A stretch of 64,000 nucleotides of DNA from Polyangiaceae bacterium (GTDB lineage: Bacteria > Myxococcota_A > Polyangia > Polyangiales > Polyangiaceae): positions 204,162 to 268,161 of the forward strand of contig CANJMI010000006.1 in NCBI GenBank assembly GCA_947475525.1, written 5' to 3'. Under the pieces are notes generated by a model that worked only from the letters and a program-made list of their open reading frames with translations, made no database searches and was not told where the DNA came from. The translations under genes were made by a program, and so were the position numbers. Below are positions 4,220 to 58,768 of the stretch, one piece after another (position 1 is the stretch's first letter; the number at the start of each line of letters is the position of its first letter).

Positions 4220-4329
4220 GAACTTCCTCGATGCAGGGGGATGACGGATGACGTTGCCCCGGACGAGGGGCAAGCTACCAACTTCGACGTGACGCTATCC
4301 ACCGTATTGACCGCCGAAGCGTCGCAATC

Positions 4330-6759: not shown

Positions 6760-6919
6760 GACGCGGCGCGTCGGCGCTCCTTAGGTAGAGCCCCATCGGC
6801 CCGTCTTCGGCCTGACACCGCCCGACGGCGAAGCGTCAGGCGCGTGGCGCTCGCGAGGCTCCAAGTCCCCGATCTCTGGTCGCCCCAATGCGGCACGCAC
6901 CTTGCCAGAGTGTACCACC

Positions 6920-7471
6920 ATGACCTCCGCCGCTCTCGACGTCGCCCGTGCCACGCCATGGTTCCGTGTCCCCCGAGCCACGAATCGGCTTGGAGAGCTG
7001 CTCGCGCACGCATCCAACGCGCTCGCCGGCGGTGTGCACGAGGATGCCCTCGGCGCCCTCGCGATGGCGCTGACGCTTGCCCCAGCCGACATCGGCCTGC
7101 GGCTTCGCTACGCGGTGTTGCTCGCCCATCAAGGCCGGCACCGCGCCGCGCAGGACGCTTTCATGGACGTGCTCGACCGCGACCGGACGAACCTCGACGC
7201 GCTGATAAGCTTGGCCGAACTCTGCCGCGGAGCGAAGCACCTCGTCGGCGCAGTCGACCTGCTCGAACATGCCCGCCGGTTCCACGGTGACCATCCGGAC
7301 GTGCTTGCGGCACTTGCCGGCATCGCACTCGATCTTGCGGACGTTGACGGCGCGATGAGGCTCTTGGTTCACCTGCAGCGCCGGACGCCGACTCACCCCG
7401 ACCTCGACACGCTGGTCCAACGGGTGGCCGACCAACGCGCGCGTGAAAATCTGGCGGCGCTCGGACTCTGA
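6920..7471 (+). CDS. TPR-like repeat protein (hypothetical)
   Basis: Alpha-helical repeat pattern (ALAMALTLAPADIGLRLRYAVLLAHQGRHRAAQDAF...). High GC3 in this frame only. Confidence 0.55.
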   Translation: MTSAALDVARATPWFRVPRATNRLGELLAHASNALAGGVHEDALGALAMALTLAPADIGLRLRYAVLLAHQGRHRAAQDAFMDVLDRDRTNLDALISLAELCRGAKHLVGAVDLLEHARRFHGDHPDVLAALAGIALDLADVDGAMRLLVHLQRRTPTHPDLDTLVQRVADQRARENLAALGL

Positions 7472-15438: not shown

Positions 15439-16217
15439 GCACCTGGCGGCAGGCTTATTCGGCCCTGCCCCGCCCTACGCTCTTCGGACACCGCGGCTCG
15501 CGAACCTCCGCCCCGGAGAATACGCTGGCCGCGTTTCGCATCGCAGCGGCGGACGGCGCGGACGCTATCGAACTCGACGTGCGACCATCGAAGGATGGCG
15601 AGCTCATGGTCATGCACGACCCTACCCTCGAACGCACGGCGAGCGATCCGCGTGCCGTCCATGCGCTCACGGTAGCCGAGCTCGCGCGCGTTCGTGTCGG
15701 TGGCAGCGAGCGGGTGCCTACACTTGCGGAGACCTTGACGCTGTGTCGCGAACTCGGGCTCGGGCTCAACGTCGAGCTCAAGCGTGACGTCCCCTCTCGA
15801 ACGCGCGCCGTGCAGAGTGCCGCTCGCACCCTGAAGCGAAGCGCCGTGGGCTTGCCCGTGATCGTATCGAGCTTCGACCCCTTGATGCTCCTCGCGTTCC
15901 GTGTGTTGGCGCCCGCGATCCCGACCGCACTTCTCGTCGAACCCGACAGCGTCGCGCGTTACCGTCTCGACCGCGCGGCCCGCTATCTCGGTGTCGCGAT
16001 CCACGCCGACCAAAAGCTCGTCGGCTCGGAAGCCGTCGCGCGATGGCACGCGCAGGGGCTTCGCGTCGCCGTCTGGACGGTCAATGACGCCGCTACGGTG
16101 ACCGAACTCTGCCGCATAGGTGTCGACGGGATCATCAGTGACAATCCCGCGATGGCACGCGCCGCGATCGACGCCGTTCAGGGTGCCGGCAGGAGCTCGT
16201 CGTCGAGTACGCCCTGA
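15435..16217 (+). CDS. glycerophosphodiester phosphodiesterase (GDPD family)
   Basis: LFGHRGSRTSAPENTLAAFRIAAADGADAIELDVRPSKDGELMVMHDPTLERT is the canonical GDPD HR...E.D...HD motif. The GTG start overlaps the DHH gene stop (GTGA). Confidence 0.85.
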   Translation: MSTWRQAYSALPRPTLFGHRGSRTSAPENTLAAFRIAAADGADAIELDVRPSKDGELMVMHDPTLERTASDPRAVHALTVAELARVRVGGSERVPTLAETLTLCRELGLGLNVELKRDVPSRTRAVQSAARTLKRSAVGLPVIVSSFDPLMLLAFRVLAPAIPTALLVEPDSVARYRLDRAARYLGVAIHADQKLVGSEAVARWHAQGLRVAVWTVNDAATVTELCRIGVDGIISDNPAMARAAIDAVQGAGRSSSSSTP

Positions 16218-18217: not shown

Positions 18218-19326
18218 ACGCTCCCGCGGGCGAGCCGCTCGAGCTCCTGCCCGCAGAGCTCACGTACAAGCTCTGCGGGGCTGTCGATCCCCGGGGCGAA
18301 CTCGAGCCGGTGGGCGAAGATTCGGTCTGCCAGGGCATCGATGTCGTCGGCGTTGACGAACTTGCGGCGTTGAATCATCGCGCGGGCCTGCAAGGCCGGT
18401 AGCGCAAGCACGAGCGAGCGGGTCGATGCGCCCTGAAGGATACGCTCATCGGCACGGGTGCGAGCCGCGATGTTGACGAGCGCGTGATGGACCTTGTCGT
18501 CGACGTAAATCGACTCGCTGACGACCTTGCGCGCGTCGAGGATCTCGGTGCGCGTCACCCGCGGAAGATCCGCACGGTCCGCGCTCGCCTTCAAGTGACG
18601 AAAGTTGCGCAGCACCTCGAGCTCGTGCTCGGGCGCGATGTGGGTCATCCGGATCTTGAACAAAAACCGGTCGAGTTGCGCATTCGGCAGCGGGAAGGTT
18701 CCGGCGACATCGAGCGGATTTTGCGTTGCGATGACTAGGAAAAACTCGTCGAGCTTGCGCGTGCGATTGTCGACGGTGACCTGTTTTTCCGCCATCGCCT
18801 CGAGCAGCGCGCTCTGCACCTTCGGTGAGGTTCGGTTGATCTCGTCGGCCAACACGACGTGGGCGAAGATAGGTCCTGGCCGAAAGAAAAATCGGTTCGT
18901 GTTGGGATCGAACACCGTTGTGCCCGTCACGTCGGACGGCAAGAGGTCCGGCGTGAATTGAATGCGGCGAAGCGTGACGATGTTGTCGTCCGGCTCGTCG
19001 TCGATGATGCAGTCGCCGAGGGCCTTGGCGAGGGTCGTTTTGCCAGAGCCCGGAAAGTCCTCGAGGAGCACGTGCCCGTCCGCGATCACGGCGATGAGGA
19101 CGAGCTCGATGACGTCATCGCGTCCCTTTACTGCCGCACGGAGTCGCTCACGCATGCGCGAGAACACGTCGAAGGCGCCTTCGAGGTCGGTTATCGGCGG
19201 GGCCTTCGTGTCGGTGACGTACTTGCTCTGCAGCGGCGCGCCGTCGTCGTCGAGGTCCCTGCCCTTCGCGGAGGCCTTCGGTTCGGTGGTCGTAGAGTGG
19301 AGCGGCTGTTCGAGTTCTTGGTTCAT
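18214..19326 (-). CDS. MoxR-family AAA+ ATPase
   Basis: Walker A LLEDFPGSGKTTLAKAL, Walker B VVLADEINRTSPKVQSALLEAMAEKQVTV, sensor LVIATQNP. AAGGA Shine-Dalgarno sequence before the ATG at 19326. Confidence 0.9.
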   Translation of the reverse strand: MNQELEQPLHSTTTEPKASAKGRDLDDDGAPLQSKYVTDTKAPPITDLEGAFDVFSRMRERLRAAVKGRDDVIELVLIAVIADGHVLLEDFPGSGKTTLAKALGDCIIDDEPDDNIVTLRRIQFTPDLLPSDVTGTTVFDPNTNRFFFRPGPIFAHVVLADEINRTSPKVQSALLEAMAEKQVTVDNRTRKLDEFFLVIATQNPLDVAGTFPLPNAQLDRFLFKIRMTHIAPEHELEVLRNFRHLKASADRADLPRVTRTEILDARKVVSESIYVDDKVHHALVNIAARTRADERILQGASTRSLVLALPALQARAMIQRRKFVNADDIDALADRIFAHRLEFAPGIDSPAELVRELCGQELERLARGSV

Positions 19327-19337
19327 GGTGGCGTCCT

Positions 19338-21767
19338 TCACTTGGAGGCGAGAAACGATGCAGGGTTCACGCGGCCGAGCCACGCGCGGGGGCCATGTCG
19401 CATCGTGCGGCATTCGTCGCGTAAGGCGGCGAGGGAACGTCTCCACTCGACCGCGGCGCCCGCGAGGCGCTCAGCATGAAAGCGGCTCGGGTCGCCGAAG
19501 TAGTGTTCGATGTGCAAATCCGTCACTCTCGCGAAAGTCGGAAATTCACGGCTCACGCGGCGACCGAAGGCTTCCCGCGTTTCACCTTCACGCCGCGTGC
19601 GCTCGAGTTCACTCAGCATGTCGAGGGCTGCCCGGTAACCGACTCGCGGAAGGGAGGCCGCCCGCGCAAAGCGTGGGAGGAGACGCCGCCACGCCTTGAT
19701 GGCGTAGAGCGCCGCGAGGATCGAGGACGCCAAGACGAGCAAGAGCTTCCGCCACGGGAGCACGAGTTTCGGCGTGAGGTTGGAGACGCGCGGCCCGTCT
19801 TTGGGCTTCTCCTCGGGGACCTTACGCGCCATATCGGCGAGCTTTCGCTGAAGTTCTTTGTCGACGGGACGCGCAGGCAGATCGATATTTTTCTGCGGTG
19901 CGATGTCGAGCACGACCCAGCCCGCGCCTTCGAGATAGAGCTCCGGCCACGCGTGCCCGTCGCCGCTCTTCACCATCAACGCCGAGCCCTCGCGCGACTC
20001 CGCATTGACGGCGTAGCCCATGCCGATGCGCGCCGGCAAGCCGAGGCTTCGCCACAAGTACACCGCGACGTGGGCGAAATGGACGCAGTAGCCGATGCGA
20101 TCTCCGAAGAGAAAGTCCGCCGCGGGATCGGCGACGTCCGCATGTCGGTGCCGAGTCGAATAGGTCAGATTCTTATCCATCCAGAGCTTCACCGACAGCG
20201 CCTGGAAGAGCGGGAGCACGCGCTTTTTTGCGTCGAGGGTCCGCGTGATGTCGTGGGCTAGCGCCGCGTAACGCGGGTCAATCGCCGGGCGCGTGTAGTA
20301 CTCGCGTAGCTCCTCGCTCCATGCCGGATTGCCGGCCTTCGCGGTGAGCAACTCCGCGAACGATGCTCGTTGGGCGAGCGCCTCGAAGCGGTAAGCCCGC
20401 GCGAATCGTTTTGGATCCGGATTTGGCGCGACATCCATCACGACGGGAGTCTCGAGCGCGAACGGTTTCTTGTGCTCCAGGACCATCGCGACGGTCGCGT
20501 GAATCAACTTGCGTGCCCCCGGTGGAGGCGGATCTCCGACGTCCTGCCGCCGCGTCGGAAACTCACTCGGCGCGTCCCTGTCGGCATCCGGCCGCGTCGT
20601 AGGAACGAGGCGATTCTCGGCAAATTGACTCCAGCTCTCTTGCCTAAGATAGAACATCTGGCCCGGTGGGTCGTAGTCGTCCCCGAGCAGCACGATCGCC
20701 ATCGGCTGTTGGTTCTCTGGACTGTCCGGCGGCGGAGGGGCGTCGAGTGGCGGGGGCTCTTCGGGCGGCGGAGAATCCCGGCCGTCGCTCGAGTCTTTGT
20801 CTTTGTCGGGCTGCCCTTGGCCGCCGTCGCTCGGGTCTTTGTCTTTGTCGGGCTGCCCTTGCCCGCCGTCGCTCGAGTCTTTGTCTTTGTCGGGCTGCCC
20901 TTGGCCGCCGTCGCTCGAGTCTTTGTCTTTGTCGGGCTGCCCTTGGCCGCCGTCCGGCTTCTCTCCGGTAGGCGGAGCTTTCGGCGGCTCACCATGAGAC
21001 TCAACGGGATGGTCACGCTCACTCTCTTTCGGGAGTCGGACGATGTGAGCGACATCGAACGAGGTGAATACGAACCACGCCAGGAGCGGAAGCGCGAGGA
21101 GCGAGAGCACGTGGGAGCGGCGACCGTGCTCAGCCGCAAGGACCGCGGCCATCACGAGAAACGCGACCGTTCCCGTCGCGAGCAAGACGACGGCCGGATC
21201 GAGCCCCGCGCGCCACGCGTAATCGCCGAGCCACAACGGCCGCGCCAGATTTCCCCCGCGGTGCGACTGAACGAGAAACGCGAGGCCGGCGATGCACGCC
21301 GCGACCTCGAGGAACACGAGAGCGCGCACGCGGATCGCCGCGGCACGCAGCGCCGCCACCGGAAGCGCAGCAAACCCAAAGAAGCGGAGCGCAACGCCCA
21401 CCGAGAGCGCGGTTGTGGGACCGAGCGCGCGTGCGATCCACTCCACGCGAACACACAGCATCGCGAGAGAATTGAGTGCCGCGAACGCGACGCCCGCTCC
21501 CGCGGCGACGACCCACCCGCGCCAGGCTGAGCGCCCGGCGAGCTCACCCAAAACCACGCCAACGAGCGTCCCCACGAGCAGCGCGCCGAGCCCGACGCCA
21601 TCTGTGAGCGGCCAGACAAGGCAGCCCAACGCAAGGGCCGTCGATAGGATCCGCAGAGGGTGGCGCAGCCAAGCCAAGCGACTCTCACCGTCCTCCCGAC
21701 CGAGGCCCCGACGGAGCTTGACGAGGAGCGTTTCGGCAGCGTTTTTGCGTGGATCGCGCGGGCTCAC
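19338..21767 (-). CDS. transglutaminase-like (Cys-His-Asp core) polytopic membrane protein with an internal 4x tandem repeat
   Basis: ~8 N-terminal TM helices. C-terminal GYCVHFAHVAVYLWRSLGLPARIGMGYAV...GHAWPELYLEGAGWVVLD is the transglutaminase core. Linker KDKDSSDGGQGQPD x4 followed by a Pro-rich stretch. Confidence 0.85.
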   Translation of the reverse strand: MSPRDPRKNAAETLLVKLRRGLGREDGESRLAWLRHPLRILSTALALGCLVWPLTDGVGLGALLVGTLVGVVLGELAGRSAWRGWVVAAGAGVAFAALNSLAMLCVRVEWIARALGPTTALSVGVALRFFGFAALPVAALRAAAIRVRALVFLEVAACIAGLAFLVQSHRGGNLARPLWLGDYAWRAGLDPAVVLLATGTVAFLVMAAVLAAEHGRRSHVLSLLALPLLAWFVFTSFDVAHIVRLPKESERDHPVESHGEPPKAPPTGEKPDGGQGQPDKDKDSSDGGQGQPDKDKDSSDGGQGQPDKDKDPSDGGQGQPDKDKDSSDGRDSPPPEEPPPLDAPPPPDSPENQQPMAIVLLGDDYDPPGQMFYLRQESWSQFAENRLVPTTRPDADRDAPSEFPTRRQDVGDPPPPGARKLIHATVAMVLEHKKPFALETPVVMDVAPNPDPKRFARAYRFEALAQRASFAELLTAKAGNPAWSEELREYYTRPAIDPRYAALAHDITRTLDAKKRVLPLFQALSVKLWMDKNLTYSTRHRHADVADPAADFLFGDRIGYCVHFAHVAVYLWRSLGLPARIGMGYAVNAESREGSALMVKSGDGHAWPELYLEGAGWVVLDIAPQKNIDLPARPVDKELQRKLADMARKVPEEKPKDGPRVSNLTPKLVLPWRKLLLVLASSILAALYAIKAWRRLLPRFARAASLPRVGYRAALDMLSELERTRREGETREAFGRRVSREFPTFARVTDLHIEHYFGDPSRFHAERLAGAAVEWRRSLAALRDECRTMRHGPRAWLGRVNPASFLASK
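20785..20952 (-). repeat. 4 near-perfect 42-bp in-frame tandem repeats inside the transglutaminase-like gene (encode DKDKDSSDGGQGQP x4)
   Basis: gtcgctcgagtctttgtctttgtcgggctgcccttggccgcc repeated 4 times. Copy 2 has 2 substitutions. Confidence 0.9.
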
Positions 21768-23056
21768 GACGCCACCTTCGTGTGAGCCTGCTTGCGGCCC
21801 GCGAGATGTTCGGGGAGGTAGGCGTGGCCCGTGCGCCGATCGACGACGACGACGCGAGCGCCATTCGTACCGCCTTCGAGCGCCTTCACGACCTTGAGGA
21901 GCTCGTCGATCGGAACGGCCTGCTCCCCACCACCCGAGGGCTCCGCCCGCGACAACGCGCGCAGGACCTTCGAGCCCCGCGCGATCCCGTCGGTGCCCAC
22001 GACGAAGTCGACTTTCCCCTTCAGCTCACGCACCGCAGCCCGAACCTTGGGAAGCCACGGTCCGGGGCGTGGGGGAACGAACACCACCAGCCGGCCGAGC
22101 GCCCCAGCTCGCTCGACAAAATGCGCGAGCCCCGTGCCGGCAAGGGAATCGGACACGCTCGCGCTGCGCGTCACAAGATCGAGCGCCCCATCACGCGTAC
22201 GCGCCTCGGCGTCCATGCCATCGGCACCGATGCGCCAATCATTGCCGAACGCCCCGAGCTCAAGGGCGAGGCGCGCGGCCCCCGCAGCAGGTTCGTCGCT
22301 GCTACCCGTCACGAGATAGGCCACGGTGTGTTCCACCGGACTTTCCGCGCGCTCCGGAGTTCTCACGATGAGGTTGCGGCTTTTCGCGAAGACTTTCCAA
22401 AGCACGAAGCGGATTGGATCGCCGGGGGCGTAGCGTCGGGTGTCGAAAGGATCGCCTTCGGGCTTACCCGCGCTAGCGCTTGCGTCCGAGCCCGATGAGA
22501 GCCCGCGAATCACGTGCACCTGACGTAGCGCCCCAACCGAGGGCAGAAGCCGCACGTCGCGCGACTCCGCGACTTCGAATTGGATGCGCGCGAGGCCGAA
22601 GACGTCCCCGACTTCGAAGCGCCTACGGATCCTCGGCGCCACCCCTCGGCGTGTGGCGCGCACGGTCTCGTGAAGACGACCCCGGAGCCGCTGCTGCCGC
22701 ACCTCCACGCGGAGTTCGCTCCACGTCCACGCCACTGTCGCGAACGGCACGAACCACAACGCACGAATCGAAAACCCCGTTGGCGCAAACCGACCGCACT
22801 CGAGCGCGAGCCGACCGTCCCCGTGCGCCGCGCGAGCCGACCGAAACACGACGAGCGCCGCGAGCGCGGCGACGACGATGGCCACGCCGACAAGCAAGAG
22901 CCCGAGGGCACTTACCGCAAACAAGACAAGATCACGCTGCTTGTAACCGTAATGCTGCAGTACGCCATACGAGGCCCCGCCTACGGCTAGGCCGAGCGGC
23001 GTGATGGGGAAGAGGTCCGCGATTCGGCGGGCTCGGCGCGCACTCCGTTTCAGCAT
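21764..23056 (-). CDS. DUF58 domain protein (MoxR-associated, vWA-like)
   Basis: Two N-terminal TM helices, then the DUF58 signature GDPFDTRRYAPGDPIRFVLWKVFAKSRNLIVR. Overlaps the transglutaminase gene start by 4 bp. Confidence 0.8.
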   Translation of the reverse strand: MLKRSARRARRIADLFPITPLGLAVGGASYGVLQHYGYKQRDLVLFAVSALGLLLVGVAIVVAALAALVVFRSARAAHGDGRLALECGRFAPTGFSIRALWFVPFATVAWTWSELRVEVRQQRLRGRLHETVRATRRGVAPRIRRRFEVGDVFGLARIQFEVAESRDVRLLPSVGALRQVHVIRGLSSGSDASASAGKPEGDPFDTRRYAPGDPIRFVLWKVFAKSRNLIVRTPERAESPVEHTVAYLVTGSSDEPAAGAARLALELGAFGNDWRIGADGMDAEARTRDGALDLVTRSASVSDSLAGTGLAHFVERAGALGRLVVFVPPRPGPWLPKVRAAVRELKGKVDFVVGTDGIARGSKVLRALSRAEPSGGGEQAVPIDELLKVVKALEGGTNGARVVVVDRRTGHAYLPEHLAGRKQAHTKVAS

Positions 23057-23706
23057 CCGTCCGACCGTTCCGGCGGCACGAACGGCGGAGGCGTGATGTC
23101 GACCGCCAACTTGCGAGTCGGGCCATCGAAACACTGCACGCGGCGAAACAAAGTCGGCTCGTTCACCGCGCGCCCGCCATCGTTGTTAACCGACTGGAAC
23201 TCTTGGCGTTCCTCGTCGAGTTTTCCCGTGAAATGGTCAGGTCGGTAGCCGAATCCCACAGGCAACTTGCCGCACACGAGGCCATCGAATTGGAAGGTCG
23301 TCGCTTCAAACACGACATGCCCGTCACGGTACGTTCCAAACGCATCCGGCATCGACGCGCGCGTTCGGTACGGTACAAACTCGTTGCACGGGCCTGGCTC
23401 CTGGTCGGACTTTCGGCCGCGCCAGGTCTCGTTGTGCACCTTTCCGACGAGCTCCGTTGGACTGCCAGGCTTGCGATGGATGACGAGCCGGAAGATCACC
23501 CACTGATGCCAGACCTCGTTGTACTGGTGCGCTTTCCACTCGCCTTCGACCGGGTCTTCGCACTGTGCCGGCGGAGGCAATCGACTGCGCTGCTCGGCGA
23601 TCGAGCCGCGGCTCGTCCCGGGACGCAAGACGATGGCGAACACAGTGAAGAACACGAGGCCCCGCGTGACGATCCGCGTCGTCCATTCGGCAAAGGTGGC
23701 CTTCAT
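23050..23706 (-). CDS. hypothetical membrane-anchored protein
   Basis: ORF with one TM helix (GLVFFTVFAIVL). High GC3. Stop overlaps the DUF58 start. No recognisable domain. Confidence 0.5.
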   Translation of the reverse strand: MKATFAEWTTRIVTRGLVFFTVFAIVLRPGTSRGSIAEQRSRLPPPAQCEDPVEGEWKAHQYNEVWHQWVIFRLVIHRKPGSPTELVGKVHNETWRGRKSDQEPGPCNEFVPYRTRASMPDAFGTYRDGHVVFEATTFQFDGLVCGKLPVGFGYRPDHFTGKLDEERQEFQSVNNDGGRAVNEPTLFRRVQCFDGPTRKLAVDITPPPFVPPERSDGC

Positions 23707-33097: not shown

Positions 33098-35500
33098 TCA
33101 GTCCATCCAAAATGCAGTGAACGCGTCGCCCCCCTCCTCCATGTCGGCGGGTCGCGCTCGGGTGACGTTCGCGTGCAAGGCAAGGTGCTCGCGGACCGCT
33201 TGGCGCAGCGCTCCTGTGCCATGCCCGTGCAACGCAAACCCATGCGGCTCGGCATCACGGAGGCACCGGTCGATGAATCGGTCGAGTTCAGAGAGCGCGG
33301 CGTCGGCGCGCATTCCCCGCAAATCACAGGTAAGACTGGCGGTTCGGACGAGTTTGTCGGCCCCCGCAGCGGGTACGCGAGCCGGCGGCAAAGGACGCGG
33401 TTCCGGCTGTTTCGGCAGATGCGGACCCTTCGGGGCAATGCGCAACTCGGCAAGCGGCACGAGCAGGTTGAACGCTCCCGCGCGAACTCGCACACGGCCC
33501 CGCTCGGGCAATTCAAGAACGTGCACCACCCCGAGACGCGGGCTCACAAGCTTCATCCCGACCGTGAGCTGCGACGACTCGACACTCGGCCCCGCAGCCT
33601 TCACCTCGCGCGTAGCCGCCTCGACGGCACTTCCGAGCGCGACCACCTTTGCGGCCTCGTCGACGATCCGCTCGGCCTCGCGCTGACCTACCGCGCCCGC
33701 GCCCTGCGTCCGTTCGAGAACCAGAAGCCGGCTCCGTGCGCCGCGAATCGCATCGCGCAGCTCCGCCGCTTCATCCTGCAGCCGCTTGCGCTCCTTGGTT
33801 CGGATGTTCGCTCTTTCTTCTTCGAGCTCGCCACGCAGACGCCGCACCGCAACCTTATCCGCCTCCGCCTCTAGCCGCGCATGTCGCTCGCGGTCGCGCT
33901 CACGTTCGAGGTCGGCGATCAGCTCCTCGCGTTGAACGACCGCCTTCGGCATCAGCTCTCGAGCGCGACAGACGACGGCCGCCGGCAGGCCATGGCGCTC
34001 AGCCGCCGCGAGCGCCGCCGACGCGCCAACCACACCGAGCCGCAGCGTAAATGTCGGAACCATGCGGTCGAAATCGAAGCCGACGGCGGCATTTGCAAAC
34101 CGCGCGTCTTCGTATGCGCGCTGTTTGAGCCGCTCGTAATGCGTCGTCGCCACAACGGCCGCGCCGCGCTGCAACAGCGCCTCGAGCAAGGCGACACCGA
34201 GCGCCGCGCCCTCCTCGGGATCGGTGCTGCCCGCGACCTCGTCGAGCAAAACGAGTGCATGCTGGCCCTGCTCGGAGGCGTGCCCGGCCGCTTCCAAAAT
34301 CGTGCGGTAGCCGACGACGTGCGCACTGAATGTCGAGAGCGAACGCTCGAGCGATTGGTGGTCGCCCATGTCCGTGACCACCGGAGCAAACCACCCGAGC
34401 CGCGAACGCCGGTCCGCTACGATTGGCAGGCCCGCTCGGATCATCAATGCCGCGAGCCCGAGGGTCTTCAAGGCAACGGTCTTGCCGCCAGCGTTTGGGC
34501 CCGAGACGACGAGCACCTCGCCGGCCCGGACGCGGATGTCGTTGGGTACGACCGGCACGCCTTGTTCAAGCAGCAAGGGGTGACGGACGAGCACGAGCTC
34601 CGCGGCCGGCTCGTCGCTCAGCGGCACCACGACCGCCTCGACATCGCGGCTCCAATTCGCAATTGCGCTCAGGCCATCGGCCTTGACGAGTGCTGCATAC
34701 GCCGCGGCGATGGGTTCAACCTGGCTCCGCACAAGCGCCGTCAATTCGCACACGATGCGCCGTTCTTCTCGCTCGACGTCGCCTTCGGCAATCCGCAGCC
34801 GATTGCTCACGGCGGTCACTTCCGGCGGCTCGACGTACAGCGTCGCGCCGGTCGCGCTCGCGCCGATCACGATGCCTTCGACACGCCGATGCGCGTCCGC
34901 TCGGACCGGAAGGCCCACGCGACCGTCACGCTCAACCGGCCCCCCGTCGCGAAGCACATCCGCGAGGTCGAGCGACAGCTGACGCAACTTGTCGCCGAGG
35001 CCTTTGCGTGCGGTGGCGACGGCGTGGCGTGCACGGCGGAGCTCCGCCGAAGCCTCGTCCTTGACGTAGCCGTGCGGCTCGATCGCCCCCAAAATCGCGC
35101 GCTCGATCTGCTCGAACTCGCGATCGTGACGCGCCTCTCCCGCGCACTCCCGCGCGAGCAACGGCAGCCGTTCGGACGCCCCACGCAAGAACGAACGCAG
35201 CGCACGGGCGCCACCGAGTAACCGAGCGACTTGCACGAGCTCAACGGCGGCCACGTCGCCCCCTCGTTCGATCCGGGCGAGCAACTCCTCGAGGTCATCT
35301 GTCCCAACAACGGGAAGCGGTTCTCCTTCGGCGAGAGTCGAGAGCGCTTCCGCCACGAGGGCGAGCCGCCGCCGAGCTTCGTTGGGCGTCTCGGCCGGAG
35401 TCAGCTCCGAGATCAGACGAACCGCGGCCTCGCCGAGGCAACGCCGCGCGATCGCCGCTACCAGCCGGCTCCACTGCAAGTCTTCGATCGAGGCGCTCAT
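33098..35500 (-). CDS. mutS2: endonuclease MutS2 (MutS domain V plus C-terminal Smr)
   Basis: Walker A LVVSGPNAGGKTVALKTLG, LVLLDEVAGSTDPEEGAAL, and a C-terminal Smr domain (LTCDLRGMRADAALSELDRFIDRCL...LHGHGTGALRQAVREHL). Start at MSASIEDLQW (35500). Confidence 0.9.
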   Translation of the reverse strand: MSASIEDLQWSRLVAAIARRCLGEAAVRLISELTPAETPNEARRRLALVAEALSTLAEGEPLPVVGTDDLEELLARIERGGDVAAVELVQVARLLGGARALRSFLRGASERLPLLARECAGEARHDREFEQIERAILGAIEPHGYVKDEASAELRRARHAVATARKGLGDKLRQLSLDLADVLRDGGPVERDGRVGLPVRADAHRRVEGIVIGASATGATLYVEPPEVTAVSNRLRIAEGDVEREERRIVCELTALVRSQVEPIAAAYAALVKADGLSAIANWSRDVEAVVVPLSDEPAAELVLVRHPLLLEQGVPVVPNDIRVRAGEVLVVSGPNAGGKTVALKTLGLAALMIRAGLPIVADRRSRLGWFAPVVTDMGDHQSLERSLSTFSAHVVGYRTILEAAGHASEQGQHALVLLDEVAGSTDPEEGAALGVALLEALLQRGAAVVATTHYERLKQRAYEDARFANAAVGFDFDRMVPTFTLRLGVVGASAALAAAERHGLPAAVVCRARELMPKAVVQREELIADLERERDRERHARLEAEADKVAVRRLRGELEEERANIRTKERKRLQDEAAELRDAIRGARSRLLVLERTQGAGAVGQREAERIVDEAAKVVALGSAVEAATREVKAAGPSVESSQLTVGMKLVSPRLGVVHVLELPERGRVRVRAGAFNLLVPLAELRIAPKGPHLPKQPEPRPLPPARVPAAGADKLVRTASLTCDLRGMRADAALSELDRFIDRCLRDAEPHGFALHGHGTGALRQAVREHLALHANVTRARPADMEEGGDAFTAFWMD

Positions 35501-35523
35501 CGCGAGCCCAGTGTGGCCCGAGC

Positions 35524-36468
35524 TCACTTCGTCAACGCGGCGTTTTTCTCGCAGAGTTCCTTGTAAAACTCTGGGATTTTCGCAAACGCCGCCGCCGGCA
35601 ACCCCTCCTCGATCGCCGCCTTCCCCCCGCTGCAGATCAAGCGACATTCCTCATCGCGCTCCTTCGAGAGGACCTTCTTTTTCTCTTTCTCCTGAAGACA
35701 GGAGTCGAGCTCGGCGCGCGCTTTATCGGCGCGTCCGACGCGCGCACACGTCGCCTTGATCATCTCGCGGTGGACGGCGGCAACCTTGCGCACTTCTTCG
35801 TCGATTTTCTCGACCGCCTTCATGTTCGTCGTCCCTTCGTCTTCGGCCGCTTGGCAAGCGTCGACGATGGTCTGAGCCGTCGCGGCCGGGTCTTCGAGTT
35901 TCCCGTAGAACGAAAGCTCCTCTTTGCCGCTGCCCATCGCTCGAACGAGCGGCGCTATCTCCTTCTTCGCCGCGTCGCTGATCGCCGAGTCGGCCACGCG
36001 GGGAAACGGGTCGGCGACGCCGGCAGCAGCCGCTTTTCCGGCCGCATCCTGGAGCGCGGCGTCGAGAGCTTGCACGGCGGTTTTGCATTTCAAGGAGCCC
36101 TCGATGCCGGGAAGGTCCGCGCACGCACGCGTGACGGCGACGAACGGCTCGGCGAGCGCAAGAAGGACGGGCGAGCTCGAGGCTTGAAGCTTCTGGCGCG
36201 CCGTGTTCGCCCCGTGCCGAATGCCATTGCCCGCGAAGGTGGCGCTACGGTCAAAGTCCGGTCGCCGCGTCGGCGCGTACTTTCCCGCGAGCGCCTTCGG
36301 CTCGAGGTAAGCGAGATACGCTGCGATCACGGCGACGGGCTCTTTCACCTGCACGATCGCCTGCTGGTAGGTCTCCTTATCGGAGCCCTTGCCGGCGTCC
36401 TCACCCTTTCCGCACGCCACGACCGCCACGACGAAACCGAGACCCGCGAGCGAAGTGCCGAGCTGCAT
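35524..36468 (-). CDS. lipoprotein (hypothetical, helical)
   Basis: MQLGTSLAGLGFVVAVVACG lipobox. High GC3. Lies directly upstream of mutS2 on the same strand. Confidence 0.55.
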   Translation of the reverse strand: MQLGTSLAGLGFVVAVVACGKGEDAGKGSDKETYQQAIVQVKEPVAVIAAYLAYLEPKALAGKYAPTRRPDFDRSATFAGNGIRHGANTARQKLQASSSPVLLALAEPFVAVTRACADLPGIEGSLKCKTAVQALDAALQDAAGKAAAAGVADPFPRVADSAISDAAKKEIAPLVRAMGSGKEELSFYGKLEDPAATAQTIVDACQAAEDEGTTNMKAVEKIDEEVRKVAAVHREMIKATCARVGRADKARAELDSCLQEKEKKKVLSKERDEECRLICSGGKAAIEEGLPAAAFAKIPEFYKELCEKNAALTK

Positions 36469-49649: not shown

Positions 49650-52600
49650 TCAAATCGCGGGGGGCTTTCGCGGCGGAGGACGCCGGCCCTTCTCGAGCAA
49701 GGAGCGCACGGCACTCAACGCAAGCTCACTCTCCTCGCTACGCGACGCGGCGGCCTGCGCGAGCGGCAAGAGCGCTTGCTCGACCAGGCGGTTCTGCTCA
49801 CGAATGAGGTCCGCGATCTCGCGCGGCATCGCCGCATGAACGGCGACGGGGGCCTGACCGACAGCCTCGAGCGCGGCCTCGATGCGCAAAAGGTACGGGG
49901 TGAGCCACCCCTCCGCCCCTGCGAGCGAGCGCGCACGATGAAGCCGTGGAGCATCGCCACCATCCTCGTCGGCCGAAGGCTCCGCCTCGGGCGGAGGCGC
50001 CATCGTCGGCCGCTTCAGCATGACTTCGCGGACCGCACGAACGTCGAGACGCAAGCCGTCGATCGCCTCCTCAATCCCGCGCTCTCCGCCCTGTTGTACG
50101 ACATCACGGAGAGAATTCACGGCAGCCACGAGCTCCGAGCGATTGTCGTCACCGAGCTCCGCGCGAATCAACGCAAGCTCCGTCGCGACCGCCGTTGTGC
50201 GGTCCTGATCGAGCACGGCGCGAATCGCTTGAAGATCCGCTCCGACGCCTGCGATGGTCCCCGACAGACGCGCCACCGGGTCGTCGGCCGCGCCGCCCAT
50301 TCGCTTGTGGCGTACGTACTCGCGCTTGATCTCTTGCCACCGTGACGTCTCGGCCGTCGAAGCACGCCCGCGCAGCTCCCCGAGCTTGAGCAGGTTCGCT
50401 TCCGCACCCGTCGTCAACGTCTGCGCCTCCGAGGTGTAGTGCGACGTGACGAGCTGCTCGATCTCATCATCCGTCATCGCCGAGACGACCTTCTCGGCGA
50501 GCTTGTTCATGTTGCGGTAGCTCCCCTGAAGCTTGAACGGCGGCTCATTTCGGAAGCGGTCGTCTTGTGCCGCGGACGCGATGTACTGCAAATTAACGAG
50601 TAAAAGCGAACGCTGAACCCGTCCGAGGTGTTTGAAGACCGCCGTGATCTCCGCGAGCTCCGCCGCCGAGTAGCCATGCCGGAGATCCGTCGACGCGATA
50701 GGCTCGCCGCAAGACAGGCGGATCAGCTTCTCGACGTCGCCCGTGTCGCGCGTCGCGAGAGGCTGAAGCGCCGAGTTCGAGGTCAGCGCATTCTCGAGGT
50801 AGCTCGACGCGAAGACGTCTTCCTTGCCCGAGAGCACGTCACCCAAGTTGTAGGTGTCCGCGCGATTCGCGAGCATGTCCGGAATTTTGAAGGCCTCGCC
50901 GCTCTCCGTGTACGGATTGCCGGCCATCACCACGCAGAACTTCCGCCCGCGGAAATCATAGGTGCGCGTCCGCCCCCGCCACACGCCTTCGACCCGCCGC
51001 TGCGCGTCGCACAGGCTGATGAACTTCTGCAAAAACTCCGGATTCGTGTGCTGGATGTCGTCGAGGTAGAGCATCACGTTGTTGCCCATCTCGAACGCGA
51101 GATTGACCTTCTCGACCTCCTGCCGCGCGGTCGCGTTCGGTGCCTCCGCCGGATCGATCGAGACGACGCCGTGCCCGAGTGCCGGGCCGTTGACCTTGAC
51201 GAACACGAGGCCAAGGCGGCTCGCTACGTACTCCATCAGCGTCGTCTTGCCGTAGCCCGGCGGCGAGACGAGCAAGAGCAGGCCCATCAAGTCGGTGCGT
51301 TTGCCATCGCCCGCGGCACCGATCTGCTTGGCGAGGTTGTCCCCGACGAGCGGGAGGTAGACGTCATTGATCAGGCGGTTGCGAACGAACGCGCTCATCA
51401 CTTGTGGCCGGTACTCCGCGAGGCGCAACGCGGTGCGCTCGCGGTCGATGAGTTCCGCCCGAAGCTTGCGGTACCCGCGGTACGCTGGCAGCTCGTCACG
51501 CAGGTAGTGCCCGACACGAGCGAGGACCTCGTCTATGCCGATGCGCATGGCCCCCCCTACGACGCGTGGATGCTGGCCGATGAGCCCGACAACCTCGCCT
51601 TCGCACAGCGCCGCAGAAGCCACCCGCGAGAGCCCCGGCGAGCAGAGCATCACCGCGGCCTCGACCGCGACCCGACGCCGCGTCTCACGCGCCGGATCGG
51701 CCGCGATGAACGCGTCAACCCAAGCCACCGCCAGACCGAATCGCTCGCGCACGTGGCCGTCGAGAGCACGCATGTCCTCATCGAACGCGCTCCGCGTACC
51801 TTGCAACTCAAGCTGACGCACGAGCCCATCCCGCAAGGACTCCGACTCGGCACTGACCGTGAAGAATGACTCGCCGGTCAGCTCCTCGATGAGGTAGCTC
51901 CCCGCCTCGACCGCCGCGGGCACGAGCACCTCGAGGCCGTGCTTCGCAGCGAACGCACCCAACACCGGGGCCGCCTCAGCCGCGAGGGCGGTCAGCGCGT
52001 CACCGAGACCGAGGGCACTGCGCAAGCGGCCAAGACTCTTGGCCTGGAGACTCCATGCGCGCTTCGTCTCGCTGTCCTCGAGGGCCCCCCAGAAGAGTTG
52101 TCCGAGGGCGCGCGCTTTCGGTGAGAAACGCAGCAGCCCCGCCGAGTCATTCAGGATGAGGAGTCTCTCGAGGATCTTCGCCGCGTCCTGATCATGGACC
52201 CCGCGATCGTAGCCTTCGTCGTGACGCTCCGCCGCGAACGCGCCCACGACGGCATCGAGTTTGCCTGCCCGCTGTGCCTCTCGTAGCGCCGCAAGCGACG
52301 CCCCCTCTTGCCCGCGAACGGCCGCCGTGAAAACCAAAAACGCGAGGAACTCTGAGCGGTAAATCGAAGGCGTCTCGCTTGGAAGGCTCTGGTCCCAGAA
52401 GCGCCGCGTCGCCTCGAACGCCGCATCGGCGACCGGCTCGTAGTAGTCGGTTCCAGTCAGGTGAAACGCGAGCGCCGTACCCGGCTGCCCGCCCGCCGAG
52501 GTCCCATCGGACTTCGGCACCATCGTAAGCTCGAGCGGCTGCGTGTTGACGGTGAACCGGTGGCGTCCAAGCTTGATGAACTCGCCGTCCCCTTCGTAGA

Positions 52601-55196
52601 GGTCGAGCTTGTCCCGCAGGCCACGGAGAGCTTCCTGACGCGCGGCCTTCAACTTGGAGAGGACAGCCTCCGATTTCACGCTATCGCCGAGGGCTTGAAG
52701 TTCCGCGGCGAGCTGCCGTAACTTCAGCACCATCGCGTCGGCGGCGAAGTACGCGTTGAGATCATCGACGGTCTTCTGGCTGCGACCACGCCTCGCTATC
52801 CCGTCCAAGATGCGCTCGGCCGCCGTCGCCAAGCTCGCGACGCGGCGCGCCTTCTCATCGAGAAGTTGCTGCTTTTTCGCACCAAACGCCTCGTAGATCT
52901 CATCGCGTTTTCCAGCGAGTTCCGCGGAGAGTTCCTCGATGTCGGAGAAACGTCCTTCGAGTTCCTCGAGCTGAACAAGCAACCGCGAGAGTTGCTCGTC
53001 GCACTTTGCCGGACTGTCCGCGAGACCAATGGCGCTCGACACCGCTTGTCCAAGCACGGCCACTTGGACGACGACCTCGGCTCGCCCCTCCGCGCTCGCG
53101 AGCTCTTTGCGGCGGCCCTCGACGATCGCGCGGGTGCGGTTCAGCTGCCCGAAGACGGCGCTCAGTCCCTCGAGGATCTTGGTGCGCTGAGTCGCATCTT
53201 CGATCGGAAGATTGGAGACGACCTCGCCGAGCAACGCGAGCCCCTCAGCCACGAGAGCGAGTTTCTCTTTGTGCGGGCGAACATCGGAAGCCTTCACGAT
53301 CGCCGGCATCGCTCGTGCGAGCGCGTCGAGATCGACCGTCAGCGGTGCGAGCGCCTCGCCGCGTGAAAGGAAGAAGACGCACGCTTTGCTGAGCTCATCG
53401 AAACTACCGGTAACGCGCGTCTCGAGCTCGGCCACTTTCGCCAGATCCATCGAGCGGAGCTCTCGAAGCCCGATCAGATGGCCGCGCAACTTGCGTAGAT
53501 TCGCGAGCCCCTCGAGGAACGGATCGACCTTGCGCCAATGCTCGGGCCGCAGCTCGCGACCGACCACCGCGAACTTTTCCTCGGCGTCGGCGAGCGCCCG
53601 TTCAGCCTCTCGTCGGAACGCGACGACTTTCTCGAACTCATCGATGATGGTTTCGGTCGTGGCGCGTAGCTGGGCGACGACCGCCTTCAGGTTGAACGCC
53701 TCCTCGCGCTCGAGCCAGTAGAAGGCGTCCACCATTCGGTTCGCCCCCGCGATCAAGTCCTCGAAAGTCTGGCGCGTCGGCTGAGCGAGACGTGCGAGCC
53801 GGCACAGGCTGAGCGCATCGCTGATGCCGCGTACGAGCTCCGCATTGCCGACCTTCGCGAGGAACGAGCCATCGGTCGGTGCCTCCGCGGCAAACGTGAC
53901 GCTCGTGAACGGCGTCTGCCAGATTTGCATCGGGTGAACACGCGTCGGCTCTGATTCGTCGCGAAACACGACGAGTCGACCGTCGTCAAAGAGGCTGTAG
54001 CCGCCGCAACGGATCGGCGTCGCGACCTCTTTGCGGATCAAATTGTAAGGAAAGAGCGCGTAGGTCCCGCGGCGCTGCTCGTAGAAGAGGAAGAGAACAT
54101 CCTCACCGTTGGGCGAAGCGAGCTTGCGGTGGAACTCGAGGTCGCCATGGTCGCCGTCGAACAGCTTGTGGTCCCCACTCTCGAGGTACACGCCTCCCGG
54201 AAACACGAGACCGTGGTCTTCGGGGAGCGCGACGCACGATTGCGCGATGGCATCGATTCGAACCGCCGCCCGCGTCTTCGCGTTGAAGACGAAATGGCGT
54301 TTTTTCTCCTCGCGAAATGGCTGGATCTCGAGCACGACAAGGTGCCCGAACTCAGCGAAGCGAATGTTCGCATCGGACAGCGCTTGGTTGCGATCGTCCA
54401 CCGGCTCGGTGAGCACGGTGAGACCCTCCTTCGAGTTGTCCTCGACGCTGAGCCGCAGGCGGCCGCCGATGCAGCTGACGAACACCTTGCCCGCAATGTC
54501 CACGAACCGACCGTCGACCTGGTCGTCGGCCGCAGGAGCGATCCATTCGAAGTCGTGTTGGCGCGGCGATTGGTACTCGCGCTCACCCCGGTCATCGGTG
54601 TAGCGGACAGCGCCGTTCGGTTCGATGGACCAGCGAAATACCTTGGTTTCGCGCCACGAGGCGCCGACTTGGAAGATCGCAAAGAGCCGGGTATCGGTCG
54701 AGACCAGCTGCAAGAGCTGGGCGTCGCGCACGTACTTGTAGAGCGCCGTGAAATCCTTGACGAACTGCGGATCCTGGAGAAACCCACCGACATCCTCAAA
54801 GCCGACCGCGCTGCAATCGTACCCACCCTCACGCACGTCGAAGCGATGAAGGGCGAAGACGTCGGCGATCTTCGTCTCGCTCTTCAGCCCGATGAACACA
54901 TTGAAGCCGACGAGCAAACGCCCGCCGACCTCGACGATGTCGACCGGCAAGCAATTGTGCTCCGTGCGCACCCGCTCGGTCGCGATGACGGCGAGCTCCT
55001 GCCCACCGAAGGTCTCCTTGCGACGCCCATTCAGGGCATCGGCACGCCTCCCGAGTTCGCTCCCATGTTCGAGGAGCCTCCCTCGGATGACATCGTAATT
55101 CCCGCCGTCGAGCGTGGTCGCGCTGCTCGACACTTCGGCGCCACTGGCCGCTTGCTCATTCGCCATCGGAGACCTCCCGGCAGCCGCCCGGAACAC
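49650..55196 (-). CDS. very large (1848 aa) AAA+ ATPase-domain protein; probably the family that databases label 'DNA repair ATPase' (DUF3686-like, conserved LDD). Co-transcribed downstream of flotillin/YqiJ.
   Basis: Single high-GC3 ORF. Beta-rich N-terminal ~500 aa, a long helical/coiled-coil middle, then the AAA domain (Walker A LLLLVSPPGYGKTTLMEYV, Walker B VMLYLDDIQHTN, arginine finger region GNPYTESGEAFKIPDMLANRADTY), and an acidic/Pro C-terminal tail. Lies 20 bp after the flotillin stop. Confidence 0.85.
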   Translation of the reverse strand: MFRAAAGRSPMANEQAASGAEVSSSATTLDGGNYDVIRGRLLEHGSELGRRADALNGRRKETFGGQELAVIATERVRTEHNCLPVDIVEVGGRLLVGFNVFIGLKSETKIADVFALHRFDVREGGYDCSAVGFEDVGGFLQDPQFVKDFTALYKYVRDAQLLQLVSTDTRLFAIFQVGASWRETKVFRWSIEPNGAVRYTDDRGEREYQSPRQHDFEWIAPAADDQVDGRFVDIAGKVFVSCIGGRLRLSVEDNSKEGLTVLTEPVDDRNQALSDANIRFAEFGHLVVLEIQPFREEKKRHFVFNAKTRAAVRIDAIAQSCVALPEDHGLVFPGGVYLESGDHKLFDGDHGDLEFHRKLASPNGEDVLFLFYEQRRGTYALFPYNLIRKEVATPIRCGGYSLFDDGRLVVFRDESEPTRVHPMQIWQTPFTSVTFAAEAPTDGSFLAKVGNAELVRGISDALSLCRLARLAQPTRQTFEDLIAGANRMVDAFYWLEREEAFNLKAVVAQLRATTETIIDEFEKVVAFRREAERALADAEEKFAVVGRELRPEHWRKVDPFLEGLANLRKLRGHLIGLRELRSMDLAKVAELETRVTGSFDELSKACVFFLSRGEALAPLTVDLDALARAMPAIVKASDVRPHKEKLALVAEGLALLGEVVSNLPIEDATQRTKILEGLSAVFGQLNRTRAIVEGRRKELASAEGRAEVVVQVAVLGQAVSSAIGLADSPAKCDEQLSRLLVQLEELEGRFSDIEELSAELAGKRDEIYEAFGAKKQQLLDEKARRVASLATAAERILDGIARRGRSQKTVDDLNAYFAADAMVLKLRQLAAELQALGDSVKSEAVLSKLKAARQEALRGLRDKLDLYEGDGEFIKLGRHRFTVNTQPLELTMVPKSDGTSAGGQPGTALAFHLTGTDYYEPVADAAFEATRRFWDQSLPSETPSIYRSEFLAFLVFTAAVRGQEGASLAALREAQRAGKLDAVVGAFAAERHDEGYDRGVHDQDAAKILERLLILNDSAGLLRFSPKARALGQLFWGALEDSETKRAWSLQAKSLGRLRSALGLGDALTALAAEAAPVLGAFAAKHGLEVLVPAAVEAGSYLIEELTGESFFTVSAESESLRDGLVRQLELQGTRSAFDEDMRALDGHVRERFGLAVAWVDAFIAADPARETRRRVAVEAAVMLCSPGLSRVASAALCEGEVVGLIGQHPRVVGGAMRIGIDEVLARVGHYLRDELPAYRGYRKLRAELIDRERTALRLAEYRPQVMSAFVRNRLINDVYLPLVGDNLAKQIGAAGDGKRTDLMGLLLLVSPPGYGKTTLMEYVASRLGLVFVKVNGPALGHGVVSIDPAEAPNATARQEVEKVNLAFEMGNNVMLYLDDIQHTNPEFLQKFISLCDAQRRVEGVWRGRTRTYDFRGRKFCVVMAGNPYTESGEAFKIPDMLANRADTYNLGDVLSGKEDVFASSYLENALTSNSALQPLATRDTGDVEKLIRLSCGEPIASTDLRHGYSAAELAEITAVFKHLGRVQRSLLLVNLQYIASAAQDDRFRNEPPFKLQGSYRNMNKLAEKVVSAMTDDEIEQLVTSHYTSEAQTLTTGAEANLLKLGELRGRASTAETSRWQEIKREYVRHKRMGGAADDPVARLSGTIAGVGADLQAIRAVLDQDRTTAVATELALIRAELGDDNRSELVAAVNSLRDVVQQGGERGIEEAIDGLRLDVRAVREVMLKRPTMAPPPEAEPSADEDGGDAPRLHRARSLAGAEGWLTPYLLRIEAALEAVGQAPVAVHAAMPREIADLIREQNRLVEQALLPLAQAAASRSEESELALSAVRSLLEKGRRPPPRKPPAI

Positions 55197-58246: not shown

Positions 58247-58768
58247 TCACGCCTCGGAGTCGCCAGGGCCGTCTTCGCGAGGCGCGAGCACCCCGGCCGA
58301 TGCGCTCCCCAAACGAAGCGCGCGCAGCTCTTGCAGAACCGCATCGAGACGCTCGACGACCGCATCGTTGGTCGCGACCGCGGGGACTTGAGCCTCGCAC
58401 GGTGGTCTGAGCGCGGACGCCGCGAGCGACGGCCCAAGGGCATGCACGACCGCCGCTATCATCTGCCCAGCCTGCGTCCGCGGATGGATCTCGTGGTAGC
58501 CGACGCTCAGGCTCGTGGAGATGTAGACGAGCGCATCGGCGTAGGTTGTCACCCGCGGATTTTCGTCGTGCTCCGCTTGGTAGAAAAGCCAGGCCGCGCC
58601 GGCGGTGAAGCGAAAGAGCGCGTCGATCGGATCTTTTTCAACCTCGCTTCGAAGCGTGGACTTCAAGCCCTCGAGGCTCAGGTCTTCGCCCGTCGCGGCA
58701 AACAGCACCGCCGCGTTGAGCGCGAGCGCCGCCAGTCCTTGTTTGCGTGGCTTCTCGGTCGAGCTCAT
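58247..58768 (-). CDS. small pore-loop (2TM K+-channel-like, Ion_trans_2-type) protein with a degenerate selectivity filter (SVGYHE instead of TVGYGD)
   Basis: TTYADALVYISTSLSVGYHEIHPRTQAGQMIAAVVHALG parallels the K-channel pore helix, filter and inner helix. High GC3. The start ATG overlaps the stop of the upstream PBP gene (ATGA). Confidence 0.6.
   Translation of the reverse strand: MSSTEKPRKQGLAALALNAAVLFAATGEDLSLEGLKSTLRSEVEKDPIDALFRFTAGAAWLFYQAEHDENPRVTTYADALVYISTSLSVGYHEIHPRTQAGQMIAAVVHALGPSLAASALRPPCEAQVPAVATNDAVVERLDAVLQELRALRLGSASAGVLAPREDGPGDSEA

Follow-up and report, generated by a model that had tools for sequence, protein, structure and literature searches.

The locus described here raises the question of what a very large bacterial ATPase acts upon. 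It lies in a 64,000-nucleotide stretch of the genome of a Polyangiaceae bacterium (contig CANJMI010000006.1; the whole stretch is called the window below), in which one gene codes for a protein of 1838 amino acids (aa) with a single C-terminal AAA+ module. The original prediction had picked it out as a giant AAA+ ATPase that might contain DUF3686 and stand next to a flotillin gene, and Pfam and synteny bore out all three points. It had also treated the protein as undescribed; an NCBI family name was found to exist, and Ravi et al. had already reported the operon (2024, mSystems, PMC11237479). The ATPase of the window is an ordinary member of this large, already described family, and it is encoded in a cassette with a YqiJ/NfeD-type membrane protein and a YqiK-type flotillin. 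The best model for its function, which on balance we favored, would make it a hexameric protein of the cytoplasm that remodels membrane assemblies of flotillin (and PspA).

The three genes of the cassette are on the same strand, with 15 nt between the YqiJ-like gene and the flotillin gene and 49 nt between the flotillin gene and the ATG of the ATPase gene. The 695-aa product of the middle gene comprises a single N-terminal transmembrane helix (aa 1–30), an SPFH/Band-7 domain and a charged coiled coil of ~450 aa. It aligned with Escherichia coli YqiK in BLASTP (E = 4e-33, 29% identity across 483 aa), a profile of 27 flotillin sequences matched YqiK with a probability of 99.8% in hhalign, and its first 250 aa alone matched Band_7 in Pfam at E = 3.3e-10, above the gathering threshold. 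These results together indicated that it was a YqiK-type flotillin. The full-length sequence gave no match in Pfam (none even at E = 10), NCBIfam or the PDB sequences, and the profile of its SPFH part missed every solved SPFH structure. The C-terminal Flot domain was not detected in Pfam (E = 0.43); the BLASTP alignment to YqiK reaches that region. The missed full-length match is most likely an artefact of the HMMER filters, for which the coiled coil is plausibly responsible. Two other cassette flotillins (L082:8044-9891 and L083:7850-9982) likewise had no full-length Pfam match and stood as "-" in the precomputed tables. Since routine Pfam annotation misses these partner flotillins, the association between ATPase and flotillin is systematically under-reported in databases.

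The 284-aa protein combines transmembrane segments with a C-terminal β domain. A profile of 24 orthologues matched E. coli YqiJ in hhalign (probability 95.2%, E = 2.8e-8). As a single sequence it reached only E = 0.027 against E. coli YqiJ in BLASTP and gave nothing in the Pfam, NCBIfam and PDB-sequence searches, so that the YqiJ assignment rests on the profile result. Its orthologue in Flammeovirga showed a weak Pfam match to YqiJ_N. Directly upstream of the YqiJ-like gene and on the same strand, there was a 173-aa open reading frame (ORF) resembling a K+ channel (Ion_trans_2; 58247-58768, minus strand), which was also adjacent in the closest relative (L019) and was not found in the distant loci. 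K+ channels have been mentioned in related PspA operons (Ravi et al., 2024; PMC11237479).

The gene order was compared among 80 loci on contigs from one genome per species, with a flank of 8 kb, and 72 of these loci had enough upstream DNA to judge. A flotillin gene was located directly upstream of the ATPase gene and on the same strand in 59 of the 72 (82%), which bears on the fraction of flotillin-adjacent members, a point that the original prediction had left to be checked. It was found 5–7 kb away in four further loci, and no flotillin gene was detected inside the flank in the other nine, which belonged mostly to Sorangium. Of the loci with the flotillin gene directly upstream, 51 had room to check for a YqiJ-like gene, and 48 of these carried it. 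All-against-all clustering of the flanking ORFs of the 80 loci revealed no further conserved neighbor. The loci came from Myxococcota, Acidobacteriota/Thermoanaerobaculia, Micromonospora, Actinoplanes and several Gammaproteobacteria; the family also occurs in Vibrio, Niabella and Flammeovirga, and the three-gene core was present in the Vibrio and Flammeovirga loci examined. The argS gene downstream of the ATPase gene in the window was found at that position in none of 80 other loci, and it is a local accident.

Three gammaproteobacterial loci (L071, L075, and L080) carried a longer cassette in the order of DUF2170, PspA, YqiJ-like protein, flotillin and ATPase. DUF2170, which corresponds to the CesT_Tir-DUF2170 of Ravi et al., was recognized in all three (E = 1e-46 to 1e-52), and PspA was recognized in L071 and L080 (E ~1e-48), whereas L075 gave just a weak short match to it. 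In a gammaproteobacterial metagenome-assembled genome (MAG; L074), genes for a DUF350 (YjfL-type) protein and an M50B peptidase were located just upstream of the YqiJ-like gene (3523-5087, plus strand), and a PspA fragment lay at the contig edge. This variant ties the cassette to the yjf-type PspA operons. Neither PspA nor DUF2170 was found in the window or in any locus outside the Gammaproteobacteria. The linkage of the ATPase to the YqiK-type flotillin and the YqiJ-type protein looks obligate, and that to PspA is facultative.

The Sorangium loci showed a different arrangement. A gene of ~1000 aa with DUF4215 repeats (PA14-like) was found on the opposite strand directly upstream of the ATPase gene, and it parted the ATPase gene from the flotillin/YqiJ pair, which was 5–7 kb away where visible (L013:4602-7583, minus strand; equivalent in L007, L009, L010, L012, L016, L021, L034, L049, and L076). 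A conserved ORF of ~1000 aa upstream of the Sorangium ATPase genes was rejected as a shadow frame of this opposite-strand gene, and the other mid-size clusters of flanking ORFs were rejected as shadow ORFs too.

Operons of this kind were described by Ravi et al. (2024; PMC11237479), who found the CesT/Tir-PspA dyad joined with three other genes, including one for a YqiJ/YuaF-type transmembrane protein. In Dokdonia, the published order is CesT_Tir, YqiJ-YuaF, a Band-7 protein with coiled coil and flotillin regions, and a protein with a β-propeller, a coiled coil and an AAA-ATPase (PMC11237479). The cassette of the window has the same gene order and the same ATPase architecture, with a flotillin gene and a YqiJ/YuaF-type gene adjacent to a gene for a β-propeller, coiled coil and AAA+ ATPase, and nothing essential differs. 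The CesT/Tir-PspA dyad, which characterizes the full-length operon only, was not found in the window. Abbreviated operons without the dyad were explicitly described in the same paper (PMC11237479), so its absence is no bar to membership, and a window without PspA and DUF2170 contains the abbreviated form. On the basis of architecture, gene order and the extended operon, the cassette belongs to the published operon family, so that the window holds no system of a new kind. The published description is at the level of domains, and the gammaproteobacterial loci analyzed here show its DUF2170-PspA extension. The AAA+ clade, the Asp-Asp Walker B motif, the spectrin-like rod, the orphan region of 430 aa and the quantified synteny are added here. 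Sub-membrane assembly and dynamics were proposed for the operon by its authors (PMC11237479). Literature searches on DUF3686, and on flotillin together with "DNA repair ATPase," returned no papers, and the ATPase is unmentioned in two surveys of SPFH proteins (PMC2636767 and PMC13086221). A preprint on swarming in Vibrio had no bearing on it.

The surroundings of the cassette were not the same everywhere. In Vibrio chagasii (L082), genes for an RNA ligase, an HD/KTI12/AAA_33 kinase-like protein and an R2K ATP-grasp protein flanked the cassette on one side (4575-7232), and genes for an HTH-HipA toxin and TelA flanked it on the other (15191-18303). These flanks are island-like and conflict- or RNA-repair-flavored, unlike the myxobacterial loci. 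The patchy distribution of the family over distant lineages suggests horizontal transfer. Both observations could be accounted for by an anti-phage or conflict system, in which a large NTPase with a β-propeller sensor, following the logic of the MoxR-vWA-β-propeller ternary systems, would trigger a membrane response via flotillin and PspA; the joint presence of a β-propeller and a MoxR-like AAA+ module, and the identity of PspA as a phage-shock protein, would also fit. However, PADLOC-DB 2.0 gave the ATPase just P-loop-level matches to IetA and mad8 (E ~0.004–0.005) and gave its two neighbors none, and neither a vWA nor an effector domain was found. The models that the ATPase matched were the generic ones, AAA and AAA_5, and bpMoxR was not among them; its AAA+ core is ~90% conserved, unlike fast-evolving sensors. 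The cassette of the window itself has housekeeping genes around it, argS and tyrS among them. We considered a conflict system quite improbable.

The N-terminal part of the ATPase, taken as unannotated when the protein was first noticed, is covered by DUF3686 (PF12458), the domain that had been suggested for checking. The match spanned aa 37–483 and positions 1–448 of the 448 in the profile (E = 1.2e-177, 591 bits vs. a cutoff of 25). DUF7902 (PF25472) matched aa 604–688 (E = 8e-23, 80.9 bits vs. a cutoff of 26), and the AAA and AAA_5 models matched aa 1297–1420 weakly (E ~1e-6 to 1e-7; AAA 28.6 bits vs. a cutoff of 21.2). Both DUF3686 and DUF7902 are domains of unknown function, so they label the protein and do not explain it. 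The N-terminal DUF3686 domain alone formed 748 clusters at 50% identity and was nearly always located at the N-terminus of proteins of 1600–1900 aa; among the candidates scored there were more than 3900 clusters at 90% identity. All 120 homologues listed had the same architecture of DUF3686, DUF7902 and one C-terminal AAA, and the median length of 203 full-length members was 1787 aa.

DUF3686 above its gathering threshold, DUF7902 and a single AAA place the protein in the family that NCBI names "DNA repair ATPase," and the Pfam description of DUF3686 reads "ATPase involved in DNA repair." Taken literally, the names would mean that DNA is what the protein acts upon, as it is for the coiled-coil ATPases SbcC, Rad50, and RecN. 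Weak RuvB_N/RuvB matches around the P-loop (E ~1e-3 to 1e-4, far under the cutoffs) and the MutS-family genes in the window would point in the same direction. However, the RuvB similarity covered only ~40–55 residues round the P-loop and reached 17–20 bits against cutoffs of 282–299, and the MutS genes are 14–47 kb distant. No DNA-binding, nuclease or ABC/SMC head domain was detected with Pfam or NCBIfam in the whole protein or domain by domain, and the ATPase is of the AAA+ type, whereas SbcC, Rad50, and RecN are of the ABC type. The conserved neighbors in the 80 loci are membrane proteins, with no repair gene among them. A role in DNA repair is hardly credible on this evidence. Nothing found here supports the name "DNA repair ATPase," which misleads and presumably spread from coiled-coil similarity.

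Two AlphaFold2 models, built from alignments of 76 sequences, covered residues 1–870 (predicted local distance difference test score, pLDDT, 86.3) and 861–1660 (pLDDT 87.0). Residues 1–20 were disordered and residues 23–53 formed a helix. The region of aa ~59–417 was modelled as all-β with consecutive groups of four strands (pLDDT ~90), and Foldseek against the PDB returned β-propeller proteins exclusively (E = 3e-6 to 6e-4, probability 0.9–1.0). The region is accordingly predicted to be a propeller, and it has no specific characterized relative: the matches had 7–12% identity, TM-scores of 0.1–0.3 and a very high root-mean-square deviation, and they ranged over Elp1, WDR11, IFT-A, tricorn, prolyl oligopeptidases, the clathrin terminal domain, Ski8, EED, and PON1. 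Behind the propeller, a long helical rod was modelled, and the coiled coil of the original prediction corresponds to such long helical regions.

The rest of the protein was less easily assigned. Between the rod and the AAA+ module, the models confidently placed a small β unit (861–911), a helical domain (937–1175), a second β unit (1181–1210) and a long helix (1211–1246). This region (aa 861–1290) and the C-terminal tail gave no match in domain-by-domain Pfam searches or in a search of the full-length family profile against PDB sequences, and in an alignment of 72 sequences the tail was gap-rich with a conservation of 0.17–0.39. The earlier estimate that a known fold explains only ~200 aa was too pessimistic, because the β-propeller (~360 aa), the helical-bundle rod (~400 aa) and the AAA+ module with its lid (~350 aa) are all recognizable. 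What is still orphan amounts to ~430 aa (861–1290) and the tail of ~190 aa.

A propeller followed by a spectrin-like rod also resembles membrane coats and tethers. The ATPase might thus be a scaffold whose propeller and rod shape or bud the membrane into vesicles or invaginations, and its AAA+ module would recycle its own lattice, not flotillin. The Foldseek matches with a propeller-plus-helical layout, including clathrin heavy chain, IFT-A, WDR11, and Elp1, and the linkage to the membrane-remodelling flotillin and PspA, are consistent with this explanation. However, these matches are at the level of the fold only, as their identities, TM-scores and deviations given above make clear, and no membrane-binding element was found in the ATPase itself. 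We considered such a coat improbable; it overlaps with a remodeller of flotillin assemblies and does not exclude it.

The motifs of the AAA+ module were counted over the 203 full-length homologues, which came from several phyla. Walker A (SPPGYGKTT, residues 1301–1309) was kept in 200, Walker B (LYLDDIQH, residues 1366–1373) had the form DD(I/V)QH in 193, sensor 1 (MAGNP at 1414) was found in 195, and a putative arginine finger (in PDMLANRAD, ~1428–1436) had the form PDMLxNRAD in ~197. The GYGKTT and LYLDDIQH motifs reported originally were confirmed at 1304 and 1366 of the 1838-aa numbering. A β-hairpin (1391–1404) precedes sensor 1. With a column conservation of ~0.9, the AAA+ core is the best-conserved portion of the protein, and it contains the Walker A, Walker B, sensor 1 and arginine-finger elements of an active AAA+ ATPase. 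As judged from sequence, the active-site motifs are intact and near-invariant. Walker B has Asp-Asp (aa 1369–1370; 51069-51074 of the window, minus strand) where Asp-Glu is canonical, and its presence in 193 of the 203 members makes this pair a signature of the family, which may mean slow or regulated hydrolysis. The arginine-finger segment is near-invariant in sequence and had a low pLDDT in the monomer model, and this would fit an element that is ordered only at a subunit interface.

Structurally, the AAA+ module is nearest to dynein, CbbQ, NorQ, and midasin, that is, to the dynein/MoxR/midasin group. Compared with dynein and midasin, in which AAA+ modules are concatenated, it is a single module fused to a propeller and a rod. 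Compared with the MoxR family (CbbQ, NorQ, RavA), it has Asp-Asp and not Asp-Glu in Walker B and no VWA/MIDAS partner: it stays under the AAA_3 and bpMoxR models, neither of which gave a match, and no VWA gene was found among the conserved neighbors. The ATPase is similar in structure to MoxR, dynein and midasin, but it is not to be classed as a MoxR protein. When the sequence was read directly, no aromatic-hydrophobic-Gly pore-loop motif was seen between Walker A and Walker B. This bears on a further explanation, that the ATPase is a quality-control unfoldase or extractase that pulls misfolded or unwanted clients from flotillin microdomains, as a soluble analogue of FtsH inside the HflK/C cages. 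However, neither a protease domain nor a protease partner was found in the cassette, the aromatic pore-loop-1 motif is lacking, and the closest structural neighbors belong to a non-threading group. An unfoldase is unlikely, although we gave it more weight than a coat or a conflict system.

The reading that we favored is a remodeller of flotillin assemblies, to which the synteny, the identity of the neighbors, the extended PspA operon, the conserved motifs, the AAA+ type and the predicted location all lend support; the term "mechanochemical remodeler" used at the outset is a reasonable inference. The ATPase would be a subunit of a three-gene membrane module with the YqiJ/NfeD-type protein and the YqiK-type flotillin. 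Its sole strongly hydrophobic stretch (698–716, mean hydropathy 1.85) falls within one of the rod's long predicted helices, and a protein without a transmembrane segment should be cytoplasmic. Basic residues follow the transmembrane helix of the flotillin, and by the positive-inside rule the SPFH domain and coiled coil would be cytoplasmic as well. Like other AAA+ proteins with a single module, it should form a hexameric ring, which would bear six β-propellers on helical rods of ~400 residues. The propellers and rods might dock on the oligomeric flotillin/YqiJ assembly, and on PspA polymers where these are co-encoded. Hydrolysis of ATP would then cause rigid-body pulling of the MoxR/dynein/midasin type, and the absence of a pore-loop motif makes threading of a substrate unlikely. 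In this way, membrane scaffolds could be assembled, opened, disassembled or recycled in envelope stress or membrane repair. In this model, we infer the hexamer, the topology, a physical contact between ATPase and flotillin, and both the direction in which the assemblies are remodelled and the end that this serves.

Functional precedents for such a remodeller exist in SPFH cages that cooperate with AAA+ machines (HflK/C-FtsH, prohibitin-m-AAA) and in Vps4 with ESCRT-III, and these systems offer partial parallels. SPFH proteins form large membrane cages; the AAA+ proteases FtsH and m-AAA are the partners of the HflK/C and prohibitin cages, respectively. The likeness lies in an SPFH-family scaffold paired with an AAA+ ATPase at the membrane. 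However, FtsH and m-AAA are membrane-anchored proteases of the classical AAA clade inside a periplasmic or intermembrane-space cage, whereas the giant ATPase is predicted to be soluble, has no protease domain, belongs to another AAA+ clade and has as its partner a YqiK-type flotillin that would face the cytoplasm. The parallel with Vps4 and ESCRT-III (PspA/Vipp1/Snf7 superfamily) is an AAA+ ATPase co-encoded with a membrane-remodelling polymer, which is PspA in the extended operons, and a Vps4-like role in recycling or disassembling the PspA polymer may be proposed for the giant ATPase.

Some observations weigh against a dedicated remodeller of flotillin. In many Sorangium genomes the cassette is interrupted, and a tight coupling is therefore not required. 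Gene adjacency alone does not say which partner is the substrate, and the literature search found no experimental paper on any member of the family. To our knowledge, most flotillins are not accompanied by an ATPase of this kind, and E. coli YqiK is among them.

What bacterial flotillins do is still a matter of debate, and we know of no ATP-driven factor that acts on flotillin-type SPFH assemblies. The ATPase is the one enzyme among the conserved partners in the cassette loci, some lineages couple it to PspA, and the family spans ~750 clusters at 50% identity in several bacterial lineages. Here, we tentatively proposed that this ATPase would be the first regulator that is both dedicated to a flotillin (SPFH) cage and driven by energy: a hexameric motor armed with propellers, which opens, takes apart or recycles the flotillin/YqiJ assembly and acts together with PspA in membrane repair. 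This stronger claim is possible, and we held it with less confidence than the general remodelling model. If true, the ATPase would have the role for bacterial flotillins that Vps4 has for ESCRT-III and NSF has for SNAREs, and through it the purpose of these flotillins could be approached directly by experiment. The family is attractive for understanding these proteins and is a tractable target for biochemistry and cryo-electron microscopy, with invariant ATPase motifs, confident structural models and cultivable hosts (Myxococcus, Corallococcus, Sorangium, Micromonospora, Vibrio alginolyticus, Niabella, and Flammeovirga).

The gene itself was described first as a single ORF of 1848 codons. The uninterrupted frame was confirmed in the ORF list and its translation, and the start was not: the count of 1848 runs from a GTG at 55196, and an ATG at 55166, 30 bases 3′ of it and preceded by GGAGG at ~7 nt, is likely the better start. 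A public record with an identical protein (P0001, 100% identity; MAG assembly GCA_943331335.2) has the 1838-aa call too. The G+C content at third codon positions (GC3) is 0.80, the value also seen in the other genuine genes of this window of 65% G+C, in agreement with the earlier argument that a high GC3 excludes an antisense artefact. The gene is real and its coordinates are essentially right. Scans for promoters and terminators at either end of the cassette gave no useful information. The features are listed in Table 1.

Table 1. Genes of the cassette and regions of the giant ATPase, in window coordinates.
Feature	Position	Strand	Basis
Giant ATPase gene, 1838 aa	49650..55166	-	ORF, GGAGG, public record, GC3; mechanical ORF extends to GTG 55196
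Flotillin gene, YqiK-type, 695 aa	55216..57303	-	BLASTP, hhalign, Band_7, transmembrane helix aa 1-30
YqiJ/NfeD-type membrane protein gene, 284 aa	57319..58173	-	Profile hhalign vs. E. coli YqiJ
N-terminal helix (aa 23-53) and predicted β-propeller (aa ~59-417), DUF3686 core	53916..55100	-	Pfam, AlphaFold2 pLDDT ~90, Foldseek
Predicted spectrin-like helical rod, aa ~441-856, helices of up to 58 residues, includes DUF7902	52599..53844	-	AlphaFold model
Orphan middle region, aa 861-1290	51297..52586	-	AlphaFold model
Single AAA+ module with lid, aa ~1291-1650	50217..51296	-	Motifs
Variable C-terminal tail (aa ~1651-1838), helical, of low complexity; the stop codon follows	49650..50216	-	Alignment

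Elsewhere in the window, the MoxR cousin mentioned by the original prediction proved to be a genuine MoxR ATPase (18214-19446, minus strand) with AAA_3 at E = 3e-56, AAA_lid_2 and a weak bpMoxR match. Its gene adjoins one for a transglutaminase-core protein (19338-21767, minus strand), and upstream there is a 456-aa ORF (21764-23134) for which Pfam gave no match. This region appears to be a typical MoxR operon and has no relation to the giant ATPase. The two MutS paralogues of the window (942-2816, plus strand; 33098-35647, minus strand) are a protein of 624 aa containing MutS_III and MutS_V domains and a MutS2 of 849 aa that has an Smr domain. Together with smc, tex, alaS, tyrS, and argS, they indicated that the window belongs to a core-chromosome region.

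Among the homologous loci, the one recorded as Comamonas sp. KCTC 72670 (L027) had the cassette layout and the degree of similarity seen in Myxococcus loci, with 51% identity to the protein of the window, and this assembly may be mislabelled or contaminated.

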